From the IMG/VR virus record IMGVR_UViG_3300033997_000406, positions 20,432 to 84,431 of that record: 64,000 nucleotides of DNA. One strand, written 5' to 3'. The DNA comes from a virus. The translations under genes and the position numbers were made by a program. The notes beneath the pieces are model-generated. The model did not search any database. It was not told the origin of the DNA and saw nothing but the letters and a program-made list of their open reading frames with translations. Shown one piece after another: positions 9,710-57,410 of this stretch (the first letter of the stretch is position 1; each line of letters opens with the position of its first letter).

Positions 9710-9918
9710 CTAAATAGGAATATCGCTATCTGCATCGACAGCAGGCGGTGCCGCTACCCATTTAAGCAGTGGGTATCTGCCATCAAGGTAGAAACCAGCG
9801 CCAGCAGGTTCTTTTGGTATTTGTGGCATTACAGCAACACACGTTTCGCAGTAACAGCGATAGCCGCCCGCGTTATCCTCTGTCAGGGCGACATCGCACC
9901 CTGGACAGAACACGCCAT
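9710..9918 (-). CDS. small zinc-finger protein (start uncertain, probably [10 protein letters not shown])
   Basis: CPGC...CETC. Confidence 0.45.
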
Positions 9919-11072
9919 CAAACATTGACTGTACGACCGCCATTATGTGAAGGAGCTGAAACAACCCCGTCTTGCTCCATAGCCTCAACTATGCGAGCGG
10001 CACGGTTATAACCAATGCGGAACTTTCGCTGAATACTGGACACGCTGCAGCTGTTGCTTTCACGAATAAAAGTAACGGCTTGGCCATAAAGAGGATCAGA
10101 GGCGCCACCATCTAATTCAGATGATGCAGCTGGCTCCTTAGTTTTTTGCTCTTCGGACACTTCCGAACCGTCATACTGGTTGCCTACAAGCAAGGCATCA
10201 ATGGATGTACTGATAATGGAGTGCATCAGGATAAGGTCAGCATCTAAGCGGGCCTTAATATCATCCCAACCCAGCTCAGTATTTTGACCGACTAGCAGGT
10301 CGTGATATTTAAGACCGGTAATAACTCCGCTATCCCGGATAACAAAAGATATTTCACTTGGCTTACACAGCCCTATCAGGACCACTAACTTGTCCTGCAA
10401 ATGCGATTGAACTTCGTCAGACATGATCAGGTGATTATCAAAGCGCGCCTTACCGCCTTCCTCATCCGGGGCTTTAAACTCTACCTTGCTGCCCTGCTCA
10501 AAACCTGCAGGTAGGTTTTCGCCTTTAGTCCACAGAGCCAAGTTGCCGTTTAATTTATGGTTATCAAACAAGGGCAAAGCAGGCAAAGAGCCAATTGACT
10601 TACGCAACAACGCCACAATAGTCTCAGCAACACTATGGCTAGATGTGCCAATAGCGATAATGTGGCGCTTTTTATCGTAATAACCATGCACTACCCTAGA
10701 GCGACTAAACGCTCTTGGCATTAGGGTTTGACGCAATTCAGATTTAAGGGCTTCTTTTTCTTTTTTTGCTAAATGGCGGCCCTTTTCGCGCTCAAGGTCT
10801 TTTATTTTTGGCGCCAGCTCTTCGTTCAGCACGTCTGAGGGCAATATCTTTTCTTCTTTCTTGACCGCAAAAACAATTAAATCACTGGATTCGTAGGTGT
10901 AACCTTCAAACGACTCATGGAGCGGCGTAGTAAAACCCTGCTTCATCGACTCTTGTGAGGTGCAAGCGGTAAACTTAAACGCCGCTAAAGCCTCACCCAA
11001 TTGAACCGCACCAAGAGCCAGTGGCTCTGTCACACGATATAAAATCAAACTTTTAAAATGTACAAACGCCAT
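9918..11072 (-). CDS. rdgC: recombination-associated protein RdgC fused to a C-terminal FtsK-gamma winged helix
   Basis: [23 protein letters not shown] (RdgC); DPLYGQAV...[30 protein letters not shown] (FtsK gamma). Confidence 0.9.
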
Positions 11073-11164
11073 AAACCCCACTCCAATTAACAATGTCAAT
11101 CCCAATTAAATCAACAACTTAATAAAAACAAAAACGCCAGAAATTATCTGGCGTCACATACTAA

Positions 11165-11350
11165 TTAATCGTCGTATTCAAATTCTCTTTTACGCCGGAT
11201 CCGCTCCTGCACTTCTTCAATCCGGTTTCTGGTTTGCAATACATTGCGGCCGCCAGAAGTGGAGCGACTAGCTTCACGCAAGCTATGTATCTCACTGTCT
11301 CTTACAACAGCACCAGCAATGTAAGGCGGGTTAATCGGCGCTCTGCTCAT
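11165..11350 (-). CDS. hypothetical protein
   Basis: 61-aa ORF. Confidence 0.5.
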   Translation of the reverse strand: MSRAPINPPYIAGAVVRDSEIHSLREASRSTSGGRNVLQTRNRIEEVQERIRRKREFEYDD

Positions 11351-11672
11351 ATAAGGGATCTCCTAATTGTGGGGCGGCCTGAACCATTTTTGTGTAATCG
11401 AGTCGGCAATAGACTTCATCTTCCGGCTGAAACTTGTCACCAAGGGCAGCTTTAACCTGAGGCGCAGTAGCGTCGACTGGTACAACTCTGTGCGTTTCTG
11501 GCACCAATGCCAGCTTCGCGCTGAACGTATCCACCAGTGCAGCGGCAGAAATGCGCTGGATCATGCTGATGGCCGTAGGGGGCGTTACAGTCCTGTCGGT
11601 TGCAACGTTTAAAATCATCGCCATGGCTGCTTTTAGTGAGTCATGTCGTTTTTGTAGGTTTTCGCTTTCCAT
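11331..11672 (-). CDS. hypothetical phage protein
   Basis: 113-aa ORF with phage-like C-terminus (VVPVDAT...YTKMVQAAP). Confidence 0.6.
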   Translation of the reverse strand: MESENLQKRHDSLKAAMAMILNVATDRTVTPPTAISMIQRISAAALVDTFSAKLALVPETHRVVPVDATAPQVKAALGDKFQPEDEVYCRLDYTKMVQAAPQLGDPLYEQSAD

Positions 11673-11759: not shown

Positions 11760-12137
11760 TCAAACGTAATGACCTTCCTGCTTTTTTGGGGTAGAACCAT
11801 TGGTTACACGGCCTCGGGGCAAACAAGAGCCAACGGCTAAAGAAGATAAATAACGATTAAACTTGGTAAGTGCTTTGGCGGCATCCTCACCTTGCAGCTC
11901 GCAGCCAGTGCGGATCAGTTCAATCATTTCATTTGAATAGGCCGCAATGTCGGCGGCACTGATAGTCAGGTATTCGGGCAGCTTCATTGCATCGGAAAGG
12001 CTAATGCGGCAATTAGTGCATTGACTGCAACCAAACTCACAGGCAGGACATGCAACGGTACCACTTGAAAGCGAGCTTAATAGCCTGGCTAACTTCCAGC
12101 GTTTAAAGACTTGATGCTTAACTTTTGACATCTGCAT
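11760..12137 (-). CDS. hypothetical protein with Cys cluster
   Basis: CPACEFGCSQC. Confidence 0.55.
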   Translation of the reverse strand: MQMSKVKHQVFKRWKLARLLSSLSSGTVACPACEFGCSQCTNCRISLSDAMKLPEYLTISAADIAAYSNEMIELIRTGCELQGEDAAKALTKFNRYLSSLAVGSCLPRGRVTNGSTPKKQEGHYV

Positions 12138-12348
12138 TTTGCTCCGAGCTACGCAGCAACTCCAGCTGCTGATCCTGTGACAAATCAGAGAACCACAAGA
12201 TGGCCGCTCTAACGATGTGGCTCTTGCTTACCCTCCCCATTTTTTCCAACAGTTTTTGGTGGGCAGAATCAAGACGCTCTTCGTCTTTTTTGCTAAAGGA
12301 AAAAGCTGATGGCTTGTAAGTTGGTTCGTTGCTATTTGATTGCGTCAT
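12118..12348 (-). CDS. probable ribbon-helix-helix (CopG/ParG-like) DNA-binding protein
   Basis: SAFSFS..DEERLD...VSKSHIVRAAI; divergent from rep. Confidence 0.55.
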   Translation of the reverse strand: MTQSNSNEPTYKPSAFSFSKKDEERLDSAHQKLLEKMGRVSKSHIVRAAILWFSDLSQDQQLELLRSSEQNADVKS

Positions 12349-12471
12349 TTTTCGGCTGCGACCTTATTAACTGTTATTAATAATAATATCCTAACAGATA
12401 ACATGCAATAAATTGAACGTATTTTAATATCACTGGAAAAACGAACAGTATTACTTTGGCAAAAAAGGCTG

Positions 12472-12545
12472 GATCATGCGGGCGGATCGGATCTACACTG
12501 GCCGCCTTTAATTTCAATAGATCTATTCCGATCCTTGGATAGATC
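12472..12545. promoter_or_regulatory. GATC cluster upstream of rep (candidate origin or Dam-sensitive element)
   Basis: Six GATC sites in about 75 bp next to an AT-rich tract. Confidence 0.55.
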
Positions 12546-12607
12546 AACTATGATAATTTGAATACAAATAGGGGGTTAGATGAATGAAGTCATAAAACGC
12601 GGGCAAT

Positions 12608-12743
12608 AAAAAAGGACTCTTTGGCGGGAGTCCTTTTTTACGAATTTGATGTTCTAAATCGTTTGGCGGCGTTTTAGAACTGAAAGTTCGAAACTAATTG
12701 TTGAACAGCTGAGCTGTTGTTTTCACTAACATCAACCAATCGC
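12608..12743 (-). ncRNA. candidate antisense (Inc/CopA-like) replication-control RNA
   Basis: Minus-strand TTGACC-17-TAATAT promoter (12778..12750), two stem-loops and a U-tract terminator at 12608-12639. Confidence 0.65.
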
Positions 12744-12813
12744 AAGTTGATATTAGTGAAAAACGCGCAGCGGGTCAACTCATCCTTAAAAAAATTGTAT
12801 AGAGAATATACTA

Positions 12814-13650
12814 ATGGACGAGAATTTTACGATCCGGCACAGTGCTGCCCTTATTTCAGCTATTGAGCTGATGATGTCTACCAAAGTCATAAAGTCAGGT
12901 TTAGGAAAAACGATGCAGGCAATAGCTGCATTTTGGAACCCAAGCGGCAATATCTACCCTTCACAATCCACGCTGGCCAGCATGACCGGCATACACCGCA
13001 GAACCATTATTACCCACATTAAAACTTTGACCGGAATGGCAGTGGTTGAAACCACCACTAGACCGGGGCGCTATTACAACGGCGAGAAAGTGGCCAGCAC
13101 ACTGATGTATTCATTCAACACGGAAAAGCTGGGCGAACTATTCAGAAAGGCTAAGGCGAAACTCAAAGCGCAAGCTATTGCCACGGCCAGAAAGGCCAGA
13201 AAAGATCACTTCAAAGCACTGCAAAATGATCACACTAACAGAGCTAAAGCTCAGGCCGATAAGATCACTGTCAGCCAGGCGCTGGCAGACTGGTTTAAAT
13301 CTCTTTGTCAAAAGGCTTTCAACGCAGAAGTGCGCCACAAAGAAAAGCTGGTGCAGCAACAGGCCTACAAAAGCGGCATAGAGCGCAATAGGATAGCCAG
13401 AGGCGAATTATTTAGCCGCGCTGAGCGCAAGCGAAGGGCTGAGGAAGCTAAGCGAGTGCAACCAGAGCGCGAGAATGCACAGCAGCTGCATGAACGCATA
13501 GTTACCCTTAGCAAGGCTGCCCTTATCAACAAATTTTCGCCTGGCGCATTTACAGACGCCATGTACTACGAACTGATGAACATATCGAAGCAAGGGCAGT
13601 TACTCGACATCGCTACAAGAATGGCACTGAGCGCGTATAAAGCCGCTTAA
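12814..13650 (+). CDS. putative replication initiator with N-terminal winged HTH
   Basis: IYPSQSTLASMTGIHRRTIITHIKTL (HTH_36-like); structured leader and GATC-containing repeats. Confidence 0.7.
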   Translation: MDENFTIRHSAALISAIELMMSTKVIKSGLGKTMQAIAAFWNPSGNIYPSQSTLASMTGIHRRTIITHIKTLTGMAVVETTTRPGRYYNGEKVASTLMYSFNTEKLGELFRKAKAKLKAQAIATARKARKDHFKALQNDHTNRAKAQADKITVSQALADWFKSLCQKAFNAEVRHKEKLVQQQAYKSGIERNRIARGELFSRAERKRRAEEAKRVQPERENAQQLHERIVTLSKAALINKFSPGAFTDAMYYELMNISKQGQLLDIATRMALSAYKAA

Positions 13651-13723
13651 AAGGATCACAGCTGGAGCTATAAAAAGATCACACTAACAAAGCTAAAGCT
13701 TAAGCCTATAGGATCACTGTCAG
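13228..13723 (+). repeat. 47-bp imperfect direct repeat (13228-13274 and 13677-13723)
   Basis: 42/47 identical; GATCAC near each end of both copies. Confidence 0.9.
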
Positions 13724-13809
13724 TAAACTGACGGTACTTTGCTCTTTAACATGATGGATTAACGCCCAATTTAGCGCCCCACTTATCCTACCCATGCTTT
13801 CATCAACAT

Positions 13810-14244
13810 ATGGAGGGTAAGCAATTGAGCCAATTAAAAGTGTATGCAGGGCTGGCTGTGGCTGCTGCAGTACTGGCACTGTCTGTTTTTGGTTATTTCC
13901 ACTACCAAGGCAAGCTTGAGCAGATAAAAACGTTAAATAACGACATATCAGCAAAAGACACGCTGATAGGTGAAAAGAACCAGTCGATTTTGCAGCTGGA
14001 AACAACAGCCAAAGATAACAGTGAAGCACTGGAAAACCTTAAGAAGCAGAACAAAGACATTGATTCAGCTCGGGCCGACCTAGCTATCACTAACAAGGCT
14101 TTATCAAGTGAATTAACAGCTGCAGAAACTGAGCTACAAGAATGGGCGCTAAAAAATGAAATCAACGATGTTTGTATTAATAGCGATATGCCTGATCACA
14201 TTATCAGGATGCTCGACAAAGCCACCGGCAGAGCCGCAAATTAA
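13810..14244 (+). CDS. i-spanin (Rz-like)
   Basis: N-terminal TM helix, coiled coil, C-terminal Cys. Confidence 0.78.
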   Translation: MEGKQLSQLKVYAGLAVAAAVLALSVFGYFHYQGKLEQIKTLNNDISAKDTLIGEKNQSILQLETTAKDNSEALENLKKQNKDIDSARADLAITNKALSSELTAAETELQEWALKNEINDVCINSDMPDHIIRMLDKATGRAAN

Positions 14245-17577: not shown

Positions 17578-20500
17578 ATGGATCAGACCAAATTTGCCAT
17601 ACAAGCGGGGCGGGCAACGTCTGTACGGCAACTAATTAGCGTGTTCGACAGCTTTTTACCGCAATCAGCACCAGCAGCGGAAGAAGAGACAGAAGGTGGA
17701 ACGAGGGCGCAAGCGAGGCGAAAATCTAACGCTGCAGCTCTGGCCATACTGGCAAGGAATCCGGATCCAAGCTTATTAACGGCAGGCGAAAAGCAAGCAC
17801 TGTGGGCCTACTCCGGCCGAGGCGGCATAGGTGATAGCACCAACGAGTACTACACGCCACCTGTATTGGCTAAAGGTGTTTGGAGTCACTTTCAGGCATA
17901 TGGCTTTGAGAATGGCAACGTACTGGAGCCCAGCTGTGCCACAGGCATTTTTAACAACCTAAAGCCGGACAATGTAATTATCACCGGCGCAGAAGTGGAT
18001 CCCACGTCCAGCAGAATTAACCAGTTACTGCACCCGACAGACACTATTCACAACATGCCTTTTGAAGCTCTGGCCAAAGCCACGCCCGACAGTACTTTTG
18101 ACGGCGTTATAGGTAATGCACCATTCGGTAGGCGATTGAATACCTTTGCTGCACAGGATGATGTATATCGCGACTTGAAAACAAATGAGCAGTATTTTAT
18201 TGCCCGCTCCATCGATAAAGTGAAGCCTGGCCACTTGGTATCACTAATCGTCAACACATCAATAGTCAGCACAAAAGGCCTAGCCAAGTTCAGGGCCATG
18301 ATCAGCCGCAAAGCTGAGTTTTTAGGAGCGCACCGCTTCCCATCAGGCACTTTTAGCGCTAACGGCTCTGATTCGGTTGTGACTGATCTTGTTGTGTTTC
18401 GCAAGCACCCGGATGAACTCGCCGAAAAAATGCTGGATATGACAGATGAACAGCTCCAGGAAGCAAATGTGCTTTGGGACACGTTTATCAGTGGCCGCTG
18501 GTTTGACGCGGAAGGCCGCAAATTTATACATGGCGAAGTAATTAGCGGGGCGGGGCAGTGGGGTAGCGACCTTGTTGTTATTCCTGGAATGCCTAAAGCA
18601 GAGCAAGGGCAGCGCCTATCCCCGCATCAGCGCATAGAAAAAGCAAACGTCATCAACGCTCACAACGAAACAATAGCCAAAGCGCTCAGCAAGCGGTTTG
18701 AAAGCCGGATTGATTGGGATCTAATAGGCGCGGCTGAGCCTGTCATAGCAAATTATGTCGACGGCGACCGCAGATTAATAAACGGCCGCTGGTTTGAAAT
18801 GACCGATGGCCAGTGGCTGCAAGTGGCGCTTACTGATGCCAAGGGCTCGCTGGACGCAACGATGTACGGTTTTACCTCTGTATCAGCAATTAAAGACGCT
18901 ATGACTGATTCACGTTCAGCCATAGACATACCGTTTAATCAACTGTCGAACATTTACCAAAACTTGCGCGACACATTGCCTTTTGATGTTGTCAGCGCTT
19001 TCCGCCTGGCTGACCAAGCACCAGCAGAACACAGAGAGCGTTTAGTTAAAGGCGCACTTATTGGCGCCCGCCTCCGGGCTTTTAATGAACGCCAACTTAT
19101 TGATCCTGACTACGACAGCGAGCTGATTGAATTACGTGAAATGTGCGCTGCAATGCACCGCAAGTTTGGCGACAGCAATAAGGTTCGCGGCATTAAAAAG
19201 CTAACAGGTGAAAGTGCAGCCTCTTACAACTTCTTTAAGTCAGCTCTGGACAAAGACGGCAACTACAGAGATTTGCTATCAGGAAACGTGGAACGCCGCG
19301 CTATAGCTCAATACAGCAACGACAATCCGAGCCACGTCATAGAGCAGCTGACCGCTACTGTTGTCAGCTCAATCACTCTGGACGAATTCAGGCAGTCTTA
19401 CACAGGACCAGATGCAGAGCTGAGTGACGCTGAGTTTCTGGATAAGCTGGCACTTTATGAAAACATAGCCATTGACCAGTTTGGCAATCTGCAGCTGATG
19501 GACCGTGCTATAGCTGGTGACGTTGCAAAAAACAATTCTCGCCTAATGTCCGCTTTGGCCAATGAAACCCTGAGTGACGTGGTTAAGTTCAATATAGCCC
19601 GCCAGCTGGACATGATTAAATCACGGCGCAAGTGGACAGATGCTAGCCGTATAAGCTTTGGCTTGCGTGACCAATTTATACCGCGTCAGACAGTGCTGGA
19701 GTTCCTGCAGCAAGAGGGCTTTTCTCATCTTAAATACGTTGGTATTGAGCAAAAATCTGTAGAAGAGGCTGGCGAGGAAAGTTTGGTTGAAGTGGATATG
19801 CCAGAAGAGCAAAACGGCATTTTCACCGGCTATTACACTCAGGGCGGCAAACAGAAAACCCGTAAAGACGATGACGGCGGCACCTTTGGCGCTCAACTTG
19901 AAAAATACCTAAACGGCTTAGGTGTTCGCAGTGCTGATGCCAAGGAGAACAGCAAGTACCGTGACCGGATCCGTGGTATGGAAAAGCGTTTTCAAATCTG
20001 GCTTCGTCAGCATGATAGCGCTGACGATATTGTTGCAGCCTACAACGATATGTTTAACGGCCATGTGGAGTTTGAACACTCAGACGCGCCCATTAACTTT
20101 GAAGGTGTTTCTGGTGAAGTACTGCATAAGGGTTATCAAAACAGTGCAATCCGCCGTCTATCAGAAGATGGCAGGGGTATTCTCGGTTTTGGTACCGGCC
20201 TTGGCAAAACATTTGCAGCGTTAGGTGCTGCTAAATATGGTGTTCAGACAGGTCGTAATCGTAAAGTTTGTATCGTCATGCCAAAAGCAGTAAACGAAAA
20301 CTGGATAAACGAAACCGTGCTGTTTTATGGTGGCGGCAACTTGTCCAAGGTCTTATTTGTCGGTTATGAGCTGGAGCAAAAAGACGGCGCATTAAGCACA
20401 AGGCCTGTGCTTGATGGCAAAGGTCAGCAAAAGCTGAATCCTTTGACTGGAAACGCTCTGACCACGCCAGTACTGCGAGAGCTGTCTGCAGCCGAAATCA

Positions 20501-54829: not shown

Positions 54830-56473
54830 TTAACCTGCGTCAATGTCTGCCAGTTCGTAGTTTTCGATTTCCAACAGGTGAAGCCATGCCGCGCCGTTGT
54901 TCGGGTGGATTTCGTCATAACCCAATGACATAACAGTGTCCTGCTGTGTCATGCCACGACCAATTGTTTGATTGATAATCATTGGAGGGATAACGTCACC
55001 TGTGATATAGGCGCCTTTACCAACTGAAATACCTTTGGCGTAACACAGGGCTTGACCTTCAGGGACCACCTTTTCAAATGGAGCGTGGAACACTTTGAAA
55101 CGGCCCATTAACAGACCTGCATACTGGATGCGCTTATCTGATGTGTAGGATGGAGATACAGCAAATACGTCCGCTGGCAGCATGTGCAGGAAGTTCATGA
55201 ATTCTGAGCTTGCGTACATACCAGCTAAACCGCTTTCTTCGGTTTCTTTCAGTAATGAGTCTGAAATGGCAACCAATTTTGCTTTGAATTTTTCAAACGC
55301 TTCTTTCCATTCGCCGCTTGCAGGAATGCTGGCATCAAACGTTGATTTTTTGCTAACGAAAAACATCATGTCTGAAAGCTGTTGCAGAGCCTTTTCGTTT
55401 GCCAGCCAGGTCTTTGCAGAGCTGATCATGCTTGAGCGGACATTAATGCCAAACTCAGACATTGATTTAAGCGTTGCCTGAATGTGAGAATCCGCACCAA
55501 TGTAGCGCTCATACGGGTGAACCGTATGGCTCATCATATTTTGCTCAATCAGTGGTACCAGTTCAGGGTTCTTTTCAATATCGACGCTGAATTCGATATG
55601 TACTTCTGTGCCAATTGGCAGAGCTGTGCTAGTGGTGATACTTACTGTGCTTTGCGTGTAATCAATGACCGCATTAACCACATAATTTACGCCAGCAAGC
55701 TTAACCACGCCTGCAGGGGTGGTTTCAGTGGCTGCGTCACTCAGGGTAAACGTTTTTGCGATGAAAACCCGAACGGTTTTCTTTTTGATAGGCAACTTAA
55801 CGCCAGCTGGTGTTAAAGCGCTGTCGAACGTCAGAACTGTTTTCACACCATCAGCAGCGACCTGGAACGGGAAGCGTTGGCGCATGGATGAATACTGGCC
55901 AGATGTGAACGGGCCAATGTAATCACCTTTTTTAAAGTCACCGAAGTTGCTGCCAGCTGTATTCACAACAGTAAAAATTTCAGTGTAAAACTTAGCTGGG
56001 TTTGGCACATAAACTACCGCGTCATTCATTGGGTTAGCCAATAAAAGAGGCAGAATTAAAGCAGCTGTGTTGGCACGAACTTCAATACCAGCAGATTGCG
56101 ACATAGGTGTAGCATTCAGAGCTGACAGCAACATACCGCTAGGGGCATCAGCTTTCACTTCTGTTTCTACAATGTTTTTCAGCTGTGAGTAAACGCTTGA
56201 CAGCAACTGGTCTGACGGCATTTGACCGTGAGCATCCACATGCTGTTTCAATTCATGCGCCCAGCACATAGCCACTTCTGCGCCACGCTTACCAAGCGAG
56301 CTAAACAGAGGGTCTTTTGCTGCTGCTTCAGTTACGTTGGCTGCCCGGATGGCAGGATCCTGAATGTAAGCACCATTTTCATGGAGTGGGGCGGCAATAA
56401 CAGCAAGCAAGGCGCCAGAATTAGCTGATACTTGCTTTTGTAACGCCTTAAAGTGCGCTGTAGTGTTGTTCAT
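54830..56473 (-). CDS. major capsid protein (P1 gp23-like)
   Basis: 547 aa; DIEKNPELVP; position upstream of the sheath. Confidence 0.82.
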   Translation of the reverse strand: MNNTTAHFKALQKQVSANSGALLAVIAAPLHENGAYIQDPAIRAANVTEAAAKDPLFSSLGKRGAEVAMCWAHELKQHVDAHGQMPSDQLLSSVYSQLKNIVETEVKADAPSGMLLSALNATPMSQSAGIEVRANTAALILPLLLANPMNDAVVYVPNPAKFYTEIFTVVNTAGSNFGDFKKGDYIGPFTSGQYSSMRQRFPFQVAADGVKTVLTFDSALTPAGVKLPIKKKTVRVFIAKTFTLSDAATETTPAGVVKLAGVNYVVNAVIDYTQSTVSITTSTALPIGTEVHIEFSVDIEKNPELVPLIEQNMMSHTVHPYERYIGADSHIQATLKSMSEFGINVRSSMISSAKTWLANEKALQQLSDMMFFVSKKSTFDASIPASGEWKEAFEKFKAKLVAISDSLLKETEESGLAGMYASSEFMNFLHMLPADVFAVSPSYTSDKRIQYAGLLMGRFKVFHAPFEKVVPEGQALCYAKGISVGKGAYITGDVIPPMIINQTIGRGMTQQDTVMSLGYDEIHPNNGAAWLHLLEIENYELADIDAG

Positions 56474-56886
56474 CGTGATACTCCGTTAGGATTGTTGTTG
56501 TAAAAATTGCCTGTCGGAGCGTTCCGGCCAGCAAATTCTAAGTCGCCAGTCGCTGCCGCTTTGAGTACTTCAAAGCAGTTAGCAATCAGATCACGTAACT
56601 CGCCTGGCAAGGCGTGATAAGGGCGCAGTAATGGGGTTTGTTGTTTTAGGGGGCGAAAGACAGCGCCATGGGTCCAGCCCTGGCGCTCTAAGTTGCTGCA
56701 GTTAAATGCGTGTAAGTCGGCTGGCTCGCTCATCGCGCCAGAGGCAATAGATTTGAGTGCAATAGCCACGGCACGAATAACGCTGCAACGCTCGCTATCA
56801 GGTAGGGCGTCAAACAGCAGGCTTGTATTGCCTGTTGCCTTGGCCTTAATGGCTTGCACTACGTTGGCGGCCAGCTCGACTTGCAT
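56470..56886 (-). CDS. degenerate RyR-domain protein
   Basis: LH......RQGWTHG......TPLLRPYHALP. Confidence 0.55.
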   Translation of the reverse strand: MQVELAANVVQAIKAKATGNTSLLFDALPDSERCSVIRAVAIALKSIASGAMSEPADLHAFNCSNLERQGWTHGAVFRPLKQQTPLLRPYHALPGELRDLIANCFEVLKAAATGDLEFAGRNAPTGNFYNNNPNGVSR

Positions 56887-56888
56887 CG

Positions 56889-57410
56889 CTAAACGTCCAG
56901 CACCAGCTGATCAACACCAGACGCAATACAGCGCTCTAAGTACTCAGCTGCTGAGCCCTTACCTGCTGATGTGTTGTAGTGTTCTTTCCAGTAGTCAGCG
57001 CGGCCAGCGCGGTCAGCCGGAATTGGGTCGTCAATAACGCGATAACGCAAACGGGCAAAAATAAGACTAAGCAGCGGGCTAAAGTCCAGCTCCCGGTACT
57101 GCACTTTTTTCAGGTCAACGTTAAAAGCTTCCAAAATTGCGTTGTAAACCGCGTCGTTTTTAGAGAACTTTTCTTTTAACCAGTCGAAAGTACTTTCATC
57201 CACCTGAGGGGCACCGGCACCAGCTCCGTATAGGGTGCGATCCCGATGGGTCGCTAAGTGCGTTTCTGCAGCACAGGTTTCAAGCAGCATGTGAGATGCT
57301 GACTCAAAAACGCCATGGCCAAGTACGTTGCACACGGCAACAGACATATCTGCAAGCTGTTGTTTCTTCGTTACGCCGTAGAACACTCTAAATATCCAGT
57401 AATTAAACAT
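56889..57410 (-). CDS. lysozyme-like protein, putative endolysin
   Basis: LLETCAAET, GAPQ, ARLRY, YWKEHYNT..GKG. Confidence 0.55.
   Translation of the reverse strand: MFNYWIFRVFYGVTKKQQLADMSVAVCNVLGHGVFESASHMLLETCAAETHLATHRDRTLYGAGAGAPQVDESTFDWLKEKFSKNDAVYNAILEAFNVDLKKVQYRELDFSPLLSLIFARLRYRVIDDPIPADRAGRADYWKEHYNTSAGKGSAAEYLERCIASGVDQLVLDV

Follow-up and report, generated by a model that had tools for sequence, protein, structure and literature searches.

A predicted antisense transcription unit in the leader of a probably RepL-type initiator gene of a P1-like phage

The control region upstream of rep

The replication initiator gene rep described here belongs to a P1-like phage known from a complete virus record of 84,431 bp with direct terminal repeats (genome label G000), and the analysis covers the 64,000-nt stretch of this record from base 20432 to base 84431 (the window), whose numbering is used unless genome coordinates are named. 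In this element, rep, a diverged gene of probable RepL type, is separated by a 465-bp gap from a leftward 76-codon gene that starts at 12348, and the stretch considered in detail is the distal part of this control region of ~465 nt. The leader of rep is opposed by a predicted antisense RNA of ~140 nt, which would run from a minus-strand promoter just upstream of rep to a hairpin that appears to terminate transcription on both strands, and it is held with moderate confidence that this RNA, like the one attributed to the P53as promoter of P1, lowers Rep synthesis. The genes of the window identify the element as a P1-like phage with ParA/ParB, a distant relative of P1, and so bear out the original prediction, in which it had been called a P1-like phage-plasmid: the portal protein is 43% identical to P1 Prt, a 2258-aa open reading frame (ORF) at the position of DarB adjoins the portal gene, spanins are encoded (PHROG matches), and homologs of ParA and ParB are present (E 3e-15 and 7e-10). 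At the locus itself, blastn and tblastn against phage and plasmid sets gave no match, and there is no sequence similarity to P1. The stretch occurs in four runs, which are DNA contigs from one subsurface-metagenome study, two of them possibly from the source sample, and over 12100-13900 these contigs (80% likeness) contain zero variant letters, joints or ends.

The features of the leader are as follows.

12570-12609, plus strand: Shine-Dalgarno sequence AGGGGG, 4 nt upstream of a short upstream ORF (uORF) of 9 codons, with ATG at 12580, TAA at 12607-12609 and the product MNEVIKRGQ
12607-12640, both strands: hairpin 1, with perfect 13-nt arms (12607-12619 and 12628-12640) and the 8-nt loop TTTGGCGG
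12651-12680: hairpin 2, with the same 8-nt loop as hairpin 1, TTTGGCGG
12704-12718: small hairpin AACAGC-TGA-GCTGTT, within a block conserved with the related locus L002
12720-12762, plus strand: hairpin 3, with 17-nt arms (12720-12736 and 12746-12762) that are 94% complementary and a 9-nt loop
12778..12750, minus strand: antisense promoter TTGACC-17-TAATAT, sigma-70-like, 9/12 matches
~12743 to ~12604, minus strand: predicted antisense RNA of ~140 nt, its ends placed from promoter and terminator
12814-13650, plus strand: rep, encoding a 278-aa initiator with an N-terminal HTH_36 winged helix

The three hairpins, the nine-codon uORF and the minus-strand promoter are all found where they had originally been placed. 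Hairpin 1 folds with -17.5 kcal/mol on the plus strand and -17.3 on the minus strand, values that none of 200 shuffles matched on either strand, and on the plus strand of the window this stem is followed by U6, making it a strong terminator. Taken with its minus-strand counterpart, this suggests that hairpin 1 is a two-way intrinsic terminator and the 3' end of the predicted antisense RNA. Hairpin 1 of the window is missing from the output of the terminator scanner, we think because the T-run was counted inside the A/T-extended stem. Hairpin 2 is weaker (-11.0 kcal/mol on the plus strand, reached by 2 of 200 shuffles, and -9.0 on the minus strand, reached by none of 200), and hairpin 3 folds with -15.4 kcal/mol, which was not reached in 200 shuffles. 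The 261-nt sense leader as a whole has a folding z-score of -5.3 and a 142-nt minus-strand RNA one of -4.1, again with 0/200 shuffles as good in both cases.

The -10 element of the antisense promoter lies in the 3' arm of hairpin 3, and the predicted start of the antisense RNA falls in the loop of that hairpin. From its 5' end this RNA would consist of a single-stranded tail, the small hairpin, the counterpart of hairpin 2 and the counterpart of hairpin 1 as terminator, the last two with CCGCCAAA loops, and it is perfectly complementary to the rep leader. In the antisense folds the loops of hairpins 1 and 2 stay open as 8-nt CCGCCAAA; on the sense strand they can close to 4 nt through G-U and G-C pairs. 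Besides this promoter, neither strand of 12100-13900 has a sigma-70-like match.

The uORF stop overlaps the first bases of hairpin 1, and 204 nt separate the end of the uORF from the rep ATG. With 79% complementarity, the 3' half of the uORF (12588-12606) could pair with the loop and 3' arm of hairpin 2 (12663-12681); the long-range helix formed in this way would enclose hairpin 1, and it is present in the centroid fold of the sense leader.

Conservation of the minus-strand unit in related phages

Homologs of rep are few. In a set of 5.8 billion proteins, six were found among 1213 candidates, and a profile search of 1.84 billion representatives gave 16 cluster representatives at E <= 1e-10. 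At the DNA level, 2 of 266 pattern matches in viral contigs proved to be related loci (L002 and L003), a second viral scan with the L003 protein returned only that protein itself (1/17), and none of 38 matches in genome contigs or of 199 in metagenome contigs proved to be a further rep locus. Both loci lie in complete P1-like phages, of 85 kb (L002) and 81 kb (L003), with the same gene order around rep, and their Rep proteins are 51% and 38% identical to that of the window, respectively.

A minus-strand unit, with a promoter 35-75 nt upstream of the rep ATG that reads to the hairpin-1 terminator, is present in all three loci. The promoter is TTGACC-18-TATCAT in L002 and TTGACG-17-TACAAT in L003 (10/12 matches each), the latter in otherwise unalignable sequence, and the RNAs predicted from these units would be ~140 nt (window), 97 nt (L002) and ~315 nt (L003) in length. 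Hairpin 1 shares in all three loci an invariant GGACTC/GAGTCC stem and upstream A6 run, which is the T-run of the minus strand, and it is a strong minus-strand terminator in each; the terminator scanner listed the homologous hairpin on both strands of L002 and on the minus strand only of L003. The short counter-transcript ending at hairpin 1 that had been proposed from the window is thus, as a predicted unit, conserved in position and orientation (3/3 loci). Because the L003 promoter sits in unalignable sequence, the conserved feature is the minus-strand transcription unit and not its content, as expected of a cis-antisense regulator, and a mechanism based on cis-antisense RNA tolerates such divergence because complementarity is automatic. 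No ORF shared or conserved among the loci was seen on the minus strand of the leader when the sequences were read.

It is very unlikely that this promoter is instead the distal promoter of the leftward operon (from 12348), with hairpin 1 as an attenuator in a long 5' leader and the RNA as an mRNA leader. The leftward genes do start 256 nt beyond hairpin 1 on the same strand, and no strong minus-strand promoter was found in window 12349-12600, as such an arrangement would have it, but hairpin 1 is a strong minus-strand terminator at every locus, and an operator-like inverted pair at 12364-12404 marks a promoter region beside the leftward genes. Furthermore, the leftward gene of L002 is directly preceded by a promoter-like site on the minus strand, TTTACA-18-AATTAT, and L003 keeps the minus-strand unit although another gene, a methyltransferase-like ORF, is its leftward neighbour.

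The plus-strand side of hairpin 1 is less constant. Its plus-strand T-run occurs in the window and in L002 and is missing from L003 (2/3), and L003 is also without a uORF, so that short ORF and T-run go together in all three loci. In L002, the short ORF has five codons (MKSTK), is unrelated to MNEVIKRGQ and ends at the same T of the conserved TAAAAAAGGACTC. These observations, together with the good Shine-Dalgarno sequence of the window uORF, its stop at the first bases of hairpin 1 and the strength of hairpin 1 as a plus-strand terminator in the window, would fit leader-peptide attenuation as the main control, in which a ribosome finishing the uORF covers the 5' arm of hairpin 1, no antisense RNA is needed and the minus-strand promoter is weak or irrelevant. 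Such a scheme leaves the minus-strand promoter in 3/3 loci and the invariant minus-strand T-run unexplained, however, and the stop codon shared by the short ORFs is a trivial consequence of the conserved TAAAAAAGG, their peptides being unrelated. It is also compatible with control by antisense RNA, to which attenuation could be an added layer, and as the main control it is considered improbable.

Less is shared in the rest of the leader. The antisense-promoter block, from the 3' arm of hairpin 3 through CAACTC, is the best-conserved part, with ~80% identity between the window and L002 (33/41 columns, counted by eye). In L002 an equivalent hairpin, in two parts, forms with a different 5' arm; its stem sequence differs and its pairing is kept, and at least 2 positions, as counted by eye, are changed on both sides of the stem relative to the window. 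For the hairpin-3 domain of these two loci, RNAalifold set the 5' arms out of register and failed to return hairpin 3, so that the covariation described here draws on separate folds and on reading by eye. Hairpin 2 has no counterpart in L002, and in L003 TTGGCG occupies the apical part of a different hairpin. The place of hairpins 2 and 3 is taken in L003 by four iteron-like tandem repeats of 29 bp (2690-2806, 97% matches), which lie in the interval from hairpin 1 to rep and would be covered by the predicted minus-strand RNA.

The loop hexamer

The hexamer TTGGCG/CGCCAA has a frequency of 0.8 per kb in the genome (68 in 84,431 nt), and it is found in hairpin apices of all three leaders, twice in the window and once each in L002 and L003. 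The original prediction had emphasised two CGCCAA loops in the counter-transcript; these stand for the window and are not conserved, since L002 has a single hexamer, located in hairpin 1 and inverted (CGCCAA on the sense strand), and in L003 the loop of hairpin 1 is AAAA, the hexamer being in a different hairpin. The hairpin-1 stem and the 14-mer CAGCGGGTCAACTC were each found in at least 120 unrelated phage loci, and these strings are therefore not specific. In hairpins with the same stem in unrelated viral loci, the hexamer occurred in 1 of 136 (among the 120 loci listed, taken as background for loop content), which argues that it is not a generic terminator loop. The hairpins are present in both the sense and the antisense RNA, so complementary loops exist whichever way the loop points, and loop-loop initiation of pairing is plausible.

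The single background case is in L119, an unrelated viral contig of low GC content, where an ordinary intergenic terminator at ~10513 has a GGACTC/GAGTCC stem and the loop TCGCCAAA. The combination of this stem with this loop can thus arise outside the system described here.

The initiator and the DNA sites around it

Rep matches Pfam HTH_36 (1.2e-8), and its gene is the only one in the genome above the cut-off for this family. It also matches the PHROG 'replication initiation O-like' (5.8e-8), such matches being weak, and gave no match to PDB sequence profiles at E <= 1 and only noise in NCBIfam. When a 21-member Rep family alignment was compared by hhalign with the P1 RepL family (ten RepL homologs), the two aligned with a probability of 94.5% (E 8.1e-8) over 124 N-terminal columns, and the ESM Atlas neighbours of Rep include clusters of PF26868 (P1 RepL) at 0.95, with 173-175 shared features. 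These comparisons point to a very diverged RepL-type protein whose kinship with RepL is distant. As had been foreseen, the initiator is unlike RepZ, PF02387 having no match in the genome, and is unrelated to P1 RepA (hhalign probability 0.2%; tblastn E 1.7).

Two repeat elements are associated with the gene.

13199-13274: three GATCAC sites inside rep (13204, 13228 and 13263), a candidate internal origin or Rep site
13648-13723: second GATCAC triplet element, just after rep

A 52-nt direct repeat (13223-13274 and 13672-13723) is 88% identical between the two, and the copy after rep is absent in L002. Within rep, D-H or D-P doublets encoded by GAT-C.. are nearly invariant in the 21-member alignment, whose members go down to 19% identity; D131 and D139, ~8 codons apart, are each conserved at 90% or above. 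The D-H...D-H-T (or D-P...D-P) doublet aligns with the repeated PCQND motif of RepL. As the doublet codons, which in the window belong to the three GATCAC sites, spell GATC, the conservation is probably at the DNA level, and the paired GATC sites look like a DNA-level constraint that would mark an origin or a Dam/SeqA-sensitive site in rep.

Further sites lie upstream of the uORF, and one of them is dispersed over the genome.

12364-12404: 17-nt operator- or promoter-like motif, with the core TATCCTAACAG at 12387-12397 on the plus strand and a partial inverted partner at 12367-12380
1203, 6307, 12387, 17521 (minus), 26359, 39835 (minus), 44592 (minus) and 57442 (minus): motif copies in the window
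5158 (minus), 6023 (minus), 13819, 18356 and 20333, in genome coordinates: further motif copies
12472-12545: six GATC (Dam-type) sites (12472, 12485, 12490, 12520, 12530 and 12542)
12526-12554, plus strand: weak candidate sense promoter TTCCGA-17-TATGAT, 8/12 by eye and below the scanner threshold, overlapping the GATC sites

The 17-nt motif (12385-12402) sits at the start of the divergent intergenic region. Its core, TATMMTAACRG, has 13 copies in the 84-kb genome, all near gene starts and usually followed by TTAAC; at <=1 mismatch 13 were counted in the window against a shuffle mean of 5.2, and none of 100 shuffles reached 13. In L002 and L003, too, the motif precedes rep. It recalls the C1 operators that are dispersed in P1, and it could equally be a phage-specific promoter element with TATMMT as -10. 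P1 C1 gave no tblastn match, and the ORF at the c1 position has no PHROG match. A P1-type late promoter was rejected for this motif, since no -22 box was seen upstream of its copies, unlike in P1 late promoters.

No 120-nt stretch of the genome has more GATC sites than the one with this cluster (6 in 74 bp), which is equalled by one near pacA; the genome mean is 2.8/kb, and by eye L002 has seven and L003 four GATC sites at the equivalent place. The candidate sense promoter that overlaps the cluster has equivalents in L003 (ATGACA-18-TATCAT, 10/12, scanner) and in L002 (TTTAGA-17-TAAGAT, 8/12, by eye). We infer that the best candidates for the sense promoter are this weak site at the last GATC sites and one at the 17-nt motif.

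In view of these sites, the elements of the leader might act mainly as DNA, hairpins 2 and 3 being Rep or repressor sites or cruciform or priming signals, hairpin 1 an insulating terminator, and minus-strand transcription serving to activate or shield the origin. The region is flanked by the genome's densest GATC cluster, the four 29-bp tandem repeats of L003 in place of hairpins 2 and 3 recall iteron origins such as P1 oriR, CACTAACA occurs in the arms of hairpin 3 as well as in the GATCAC repeats in and after rep, and hairpin 3 overlaps the antisense promoter as an operator would. In P1, transcription of repL is essential for lytic replication (PMC9948254). On the other side, hairpin 3 is a 43-bp near-perfect palindrome with a 9-nt centre, which is long for an operator, and its sequence is not kept in L002 although its pairing is, the CTAACA core being absent there. 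In addition, the DNA signal that is found family-wide, the GATC pairs, lies inside rep and not in the leader, and the minus-strand RNA would end ~60 bp before the GATC cluster. An account in which the leader elements act mainly as DNA is therefore given a low probability.

Proposed mechanism

From the arrangement described above we infer that the antisense RNA is made with the ends given, that it represses rep, in the manner set out here, and that the uORF has a part in this control. In the proposed mechanism, the minus-strand promoter (12778..12750) would start an RNA in the loop of hairpin 3 (~12743) that ends at hairpin 1 (~12604). This RNA would be made constitutively, pair with rep transcripts arriving from upstream and reduce Rep synthesis, and the lower level of Rep would limit initiation at an origin in or beside rep. 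Pairing would probably begin when the two open CCGCCAAA loops of the antisense RNA contact the UUUGGCGG loops of the leader, after which the single-stranded 5' tail, being complementary to the 5' arm of hairpin 3, would lengthen the duplex. As a likely second layer, a ribosome terminating on the uORF could block hairpin 1 and let sense transcripts read through.

As to how pairing would lower Rep synthesis, several known devices fit poorly. The original prediction had suggested attenuation at hairpin 1 driven by the antisense RNA; this is at odds with the layout, hairpin 1 being transcribed first in the overlap, and hairpin 1 is not a plus-strand terminator in L003. Attenuation of the pT181 type was likewise set aside for its geometry, with hairpin 1 at the 5' edge of the overlap. 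A pseudoknot of the IncI type can be ruled out, as CGCC does not occur near the rep start. A translational switch, in which antisense binding would leave the 3' arm of hairpin 3 to pair with the rep start, was rejected as a general mechanism, since it works in L002 and not in the window. In L002 (2903-2939 and 3007-3019), the 5' arm of hairpin 3 nearly repeats rep codons 3-7, so that sequestration of the 5' arm allows the 3' arm to pair with the region of the rep start.

Several points weigh against repression of rep by an antisense RNA of this kind. The RNA is a sequence prediction, the runs with the phage being DNA, and the DNA comparison covers three loci (window, L002 and L003). The promoter of the window alone is not above chance, with 1 match observed against a shuffle mean of 2.5 (sd 1.8), and it takes its weight from being conserved in the relatives; on the plus strand of 12100-13900 no sense promoter was found at the scanner threshold, so that an overlap of rep mRNA with the antisense region is presumed. 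When antisense binding was modelled, pairing of the rep start (+1..+20) rose from 0.46 to 0.72 in L002 and went from 0.50 to 0.51 in the window. The hexamer loops are non-random, but their position and orientation are not fixed; the loop of hairpin 1 may be free to vary, and the kissing-loop step of the mechanism is weak. The antisense RNA of the window would end before the putative operator and promoter, unlike that of P1, which crosses the sense promoter. With respect to the initiator, the kinship with RepL covers the N-terminal half of the protein only, a single RepL sequence reached an hhalign probability of only 3.4%, P1 RepL had no tblastn match, and PF26868 is absent among the precomputed domains of six close Rep homologs. 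With these points taken into account, repression of rep by a P53as-like antisense RNA is still regarded as the most probable of the accounts considered.

A second replicon or a single replicon

The original prediction had gone further and proposed copy control of the plasmid state by this leader. Known P1-like phage-plasmids carry IncY or p0111 repA in addition to repL (PMC9603915). In G000, Pfam Rep_3 (PF01051), RepL (Firmicute type), DnaB_C, IncFII_repA and Phage_rep_O had no match, tblastn with P1 RepA, RepL and KilA against the genome found nothing, and family scans that covered 40 of the ORFs of the genome gave no second initiator. The 81-kb phage that carries L003 (G002) has a Rep_3 gene at 77282-78202, beside a gene of 171 aa, and by eye the C-terminal part of its product resembles a stretch of P1 RepA. 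No Rep_3 gene was found in G000 or in the relative G001. In the window, the homolog of the 171-aa gene (56889-57410) is followed directly by a capsid-side gene, and the syntenic spot is a 416-bp gap (56473-56889).

It is possible, though doubtful, that G000 and G001 have lost the P1-RepA-type replicon that G002 has kept, so that a single RepL-type replicon would serve both prophage maintenance and lytic growth, with the antisense RNA and its kissing loops, the uORF-gated terminator and the Dam cluster acting as a joint copy-number controller. If this were true, a guard of the lytic replicon would have been recruited for plasmid copy control, and in the G002 leader four iteron-like repeats replace hairpins 2 and 3; and if G000 does rely on the RepL-type replicon alone, copy control, as first proposed, would be right in a stronger sense. 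As it stands, that proposal is unproven. G002 has the same antisense unit beside its P1-RepA-like replicon, which favours a P53as-like guard of a lytic-type replicon as the more likely ancestral role. Whether a P1-like element with ParAB and no RepA-type replicon can live as a plasmid on a RepL-type replicon alone is a question that the locus raises.

Neighbouring genes and other features of the genome

The divergent neighbours of rep are small, with 76 aa in the window (12118-12348, minus strand) and 71 aa in L002 (2359-2574, minus strand), and have no family match. By eye both look like ribbon-helix-helix regulators, which may regulate the intergenic region. Elsewhere in the window, one gene product (9918-11105, minus strand) combines an RdgC domain with a C-terminal FtsK-gamma (KOPS-reading) domain. 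In genome coordinates, a protein with a HicB-like antitoxin domain is encoded at 10477-10887 (plus strand) and a short tyrosine recombinase of 204 aa, which may be a Cre-like dimer resolvase or an integrase, at 10923-11537 (minus strand). At genome ~18411-18530, ~2 kb before the start of the window, six GATC sites in 120 nt lie beside the start of the gene at the pacA position, and this stretch is a candidate pac site, by analogy with P1.

Comparison with known systems

The oop RNA of lambda is small and leftward, starts from a promoter immediately before an O-type initiator gene with an internal origin, and is antisense to cII. The window resembles this arrangement in having a leftward small RNA, here predicted, before an initiator gene, and the weak PHROG 'O-like' matches of Rep fit such a likeness. 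It differs in that oop targets cII and not the initiator leader, and Pfam Phage_rep_O has no match in the genome. Iteron replicons of the P1 oriR type differ as well, as the window genome is without a match to a Rep_3 initiator.

Transcriptional attenuation driven by a countertranscript, reportedly the subject of a 1989 study by Novick and colleagues, is found in plasmids such as pT181, pIP501 and pAMbeta1. In plasmids of this type the attenuator follows the antisense target and immediately precedes rep. Such systems and the window have in common an antisense RNA with two stem-loops that opposes a rep leader with an intrinsic terminator. In the window, unlike in the pT181 type, the sole strong plus-strand terminator is hairpin 1, which is transcribed first in the overlap; between hairpin 3 and the rep ATG the scanner found no terminator-like site, its only entry being a weak site at 12704-12718.

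Another group with a short countertranscript to the rep leader, made constitutively, comprises IncI-alpha ColIb-P9, the I-complex (IncB/K/L-M) and the CopA/CopT system of IncFII. In the IncI systems, Inc RNA controls repZ, whose expression depends on a pseudoknot between the loop sequence GGCG and CGCC by the rep ribosome-binding site, and a leader peptide is translationally coupled to rep; for ColIb-P9, control of repZ by Inc RNA is said to have been described by Asano and colleagues in 1998. The predicted RNA of the window is like these in its 5' tail and in the short upstream ORF of its target, and it resembles the IncI systems in that the loops of the target hairpins (hairpins 1 and 2) contain UUGGCG, with CGCCAA as the complement on the antisense side. 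It is unlike them in that the initiator is an HTH_36 protein without PF02387, no CGCC is present in window 12765-12813 near the rep start, the uORF is ~200 nt from rep and uncoupled, and there are two identical loops instead of one, the loop being flipped in L002. A search of Rfam 15, which includes plasmid antisense RNAs, gave no CopA or Inc match at E <= 10, only four matches to unrelated families at E 0.33-8.4, far below gathering scores. The analogy with IncI plasmids that had first been drawn thus comes down to the hexamer, as there is no CGCC partner, no Rfam match and no leader peptide coupled to rep.

As the initiator appears to be distantly RepL-type, the closest precedent is P1's own lytic replicon and not the IncI plasmids. 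Control of the P1 lytic replicon by an antisense RNA is reportedly what the title of a 1995 study by Heinrich and colleagues states, and the RNA is said to be '180-base'. In the GenBank annotation of P1 (NC_005856), the region upstream of kilA-repL has three Dam sites, the promoter PkilA (formerly P53) with the overlapping C1 operator OrepL (Op53), and the antisense promoter PaskilA (formerly P53as) with a mapped start, and oriL lies inside repL. A two-way terminator hairpin is located just upstream of the Dam sites of P1, where the antisense RNA should end. RepL and antisense are unmentioned in PMC7969092. In the original prediction, an antisense-controlled replicon had been set against the iterons of P1; the conserved minus-strand unit supports the first half of this statement, and the contrast compares the wrong P1 replicon, since for the RepL replicon of P1, too, an antisense promoter is annotated. 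The principle is not new: that the P1 lytic replicon is under antisense control was already known in the 1990s.

The two systems differ in several respects. The window has no kilA between promoter and rep (P1 KilA, best tblastn E 3.9), only the uORF, in a leader of ~415 nt; its terminator lies between the GATC/operator region and the antisense promoter; UUGGCG-type loops are present in the window, and none was seen in a fold of the antisense region of P1; and in the genome of the window no C1 homolog was detectable and no separate RepA-type replicon was found. The likenesses begin with the P1-type host element and with the initiators, which have similar sizes (278 vs 281 aa) and an HTH_36-like winged helix in the same place. 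In both, a repeated DNA motif lies inside the initiator gene, where an internal origin is expected, GATC sites are found in the regulatory region (six in the window, three in P1), a dispersed asymmetric operator-like motif stands at the start of the leader, and a sigma-70 antisense promoter, in the window a predicted one (3/3 loci), faces a two-way terminator hairpin with an A-run and a T-run. On sequence grounds, the window and P1 thus appear to share a parts list of operator-like motif, GATC sites, antisense promoter, two-way terminator and GATC repeats in rep. This would extend the antisense design to a small family of initiators that the Pfam model for RepL does not mark on six close homologs, and the paired GATC sites in the D-H/D-P codons, which align with the RepL repeat, point to where the origins of RepL-type replicons may lie. 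A three-way comparison of these leaders, with UUGGCG loops, a flipped loop and, in one of them, iteron-like repeats, could show which parts of a control region of this kind matter.

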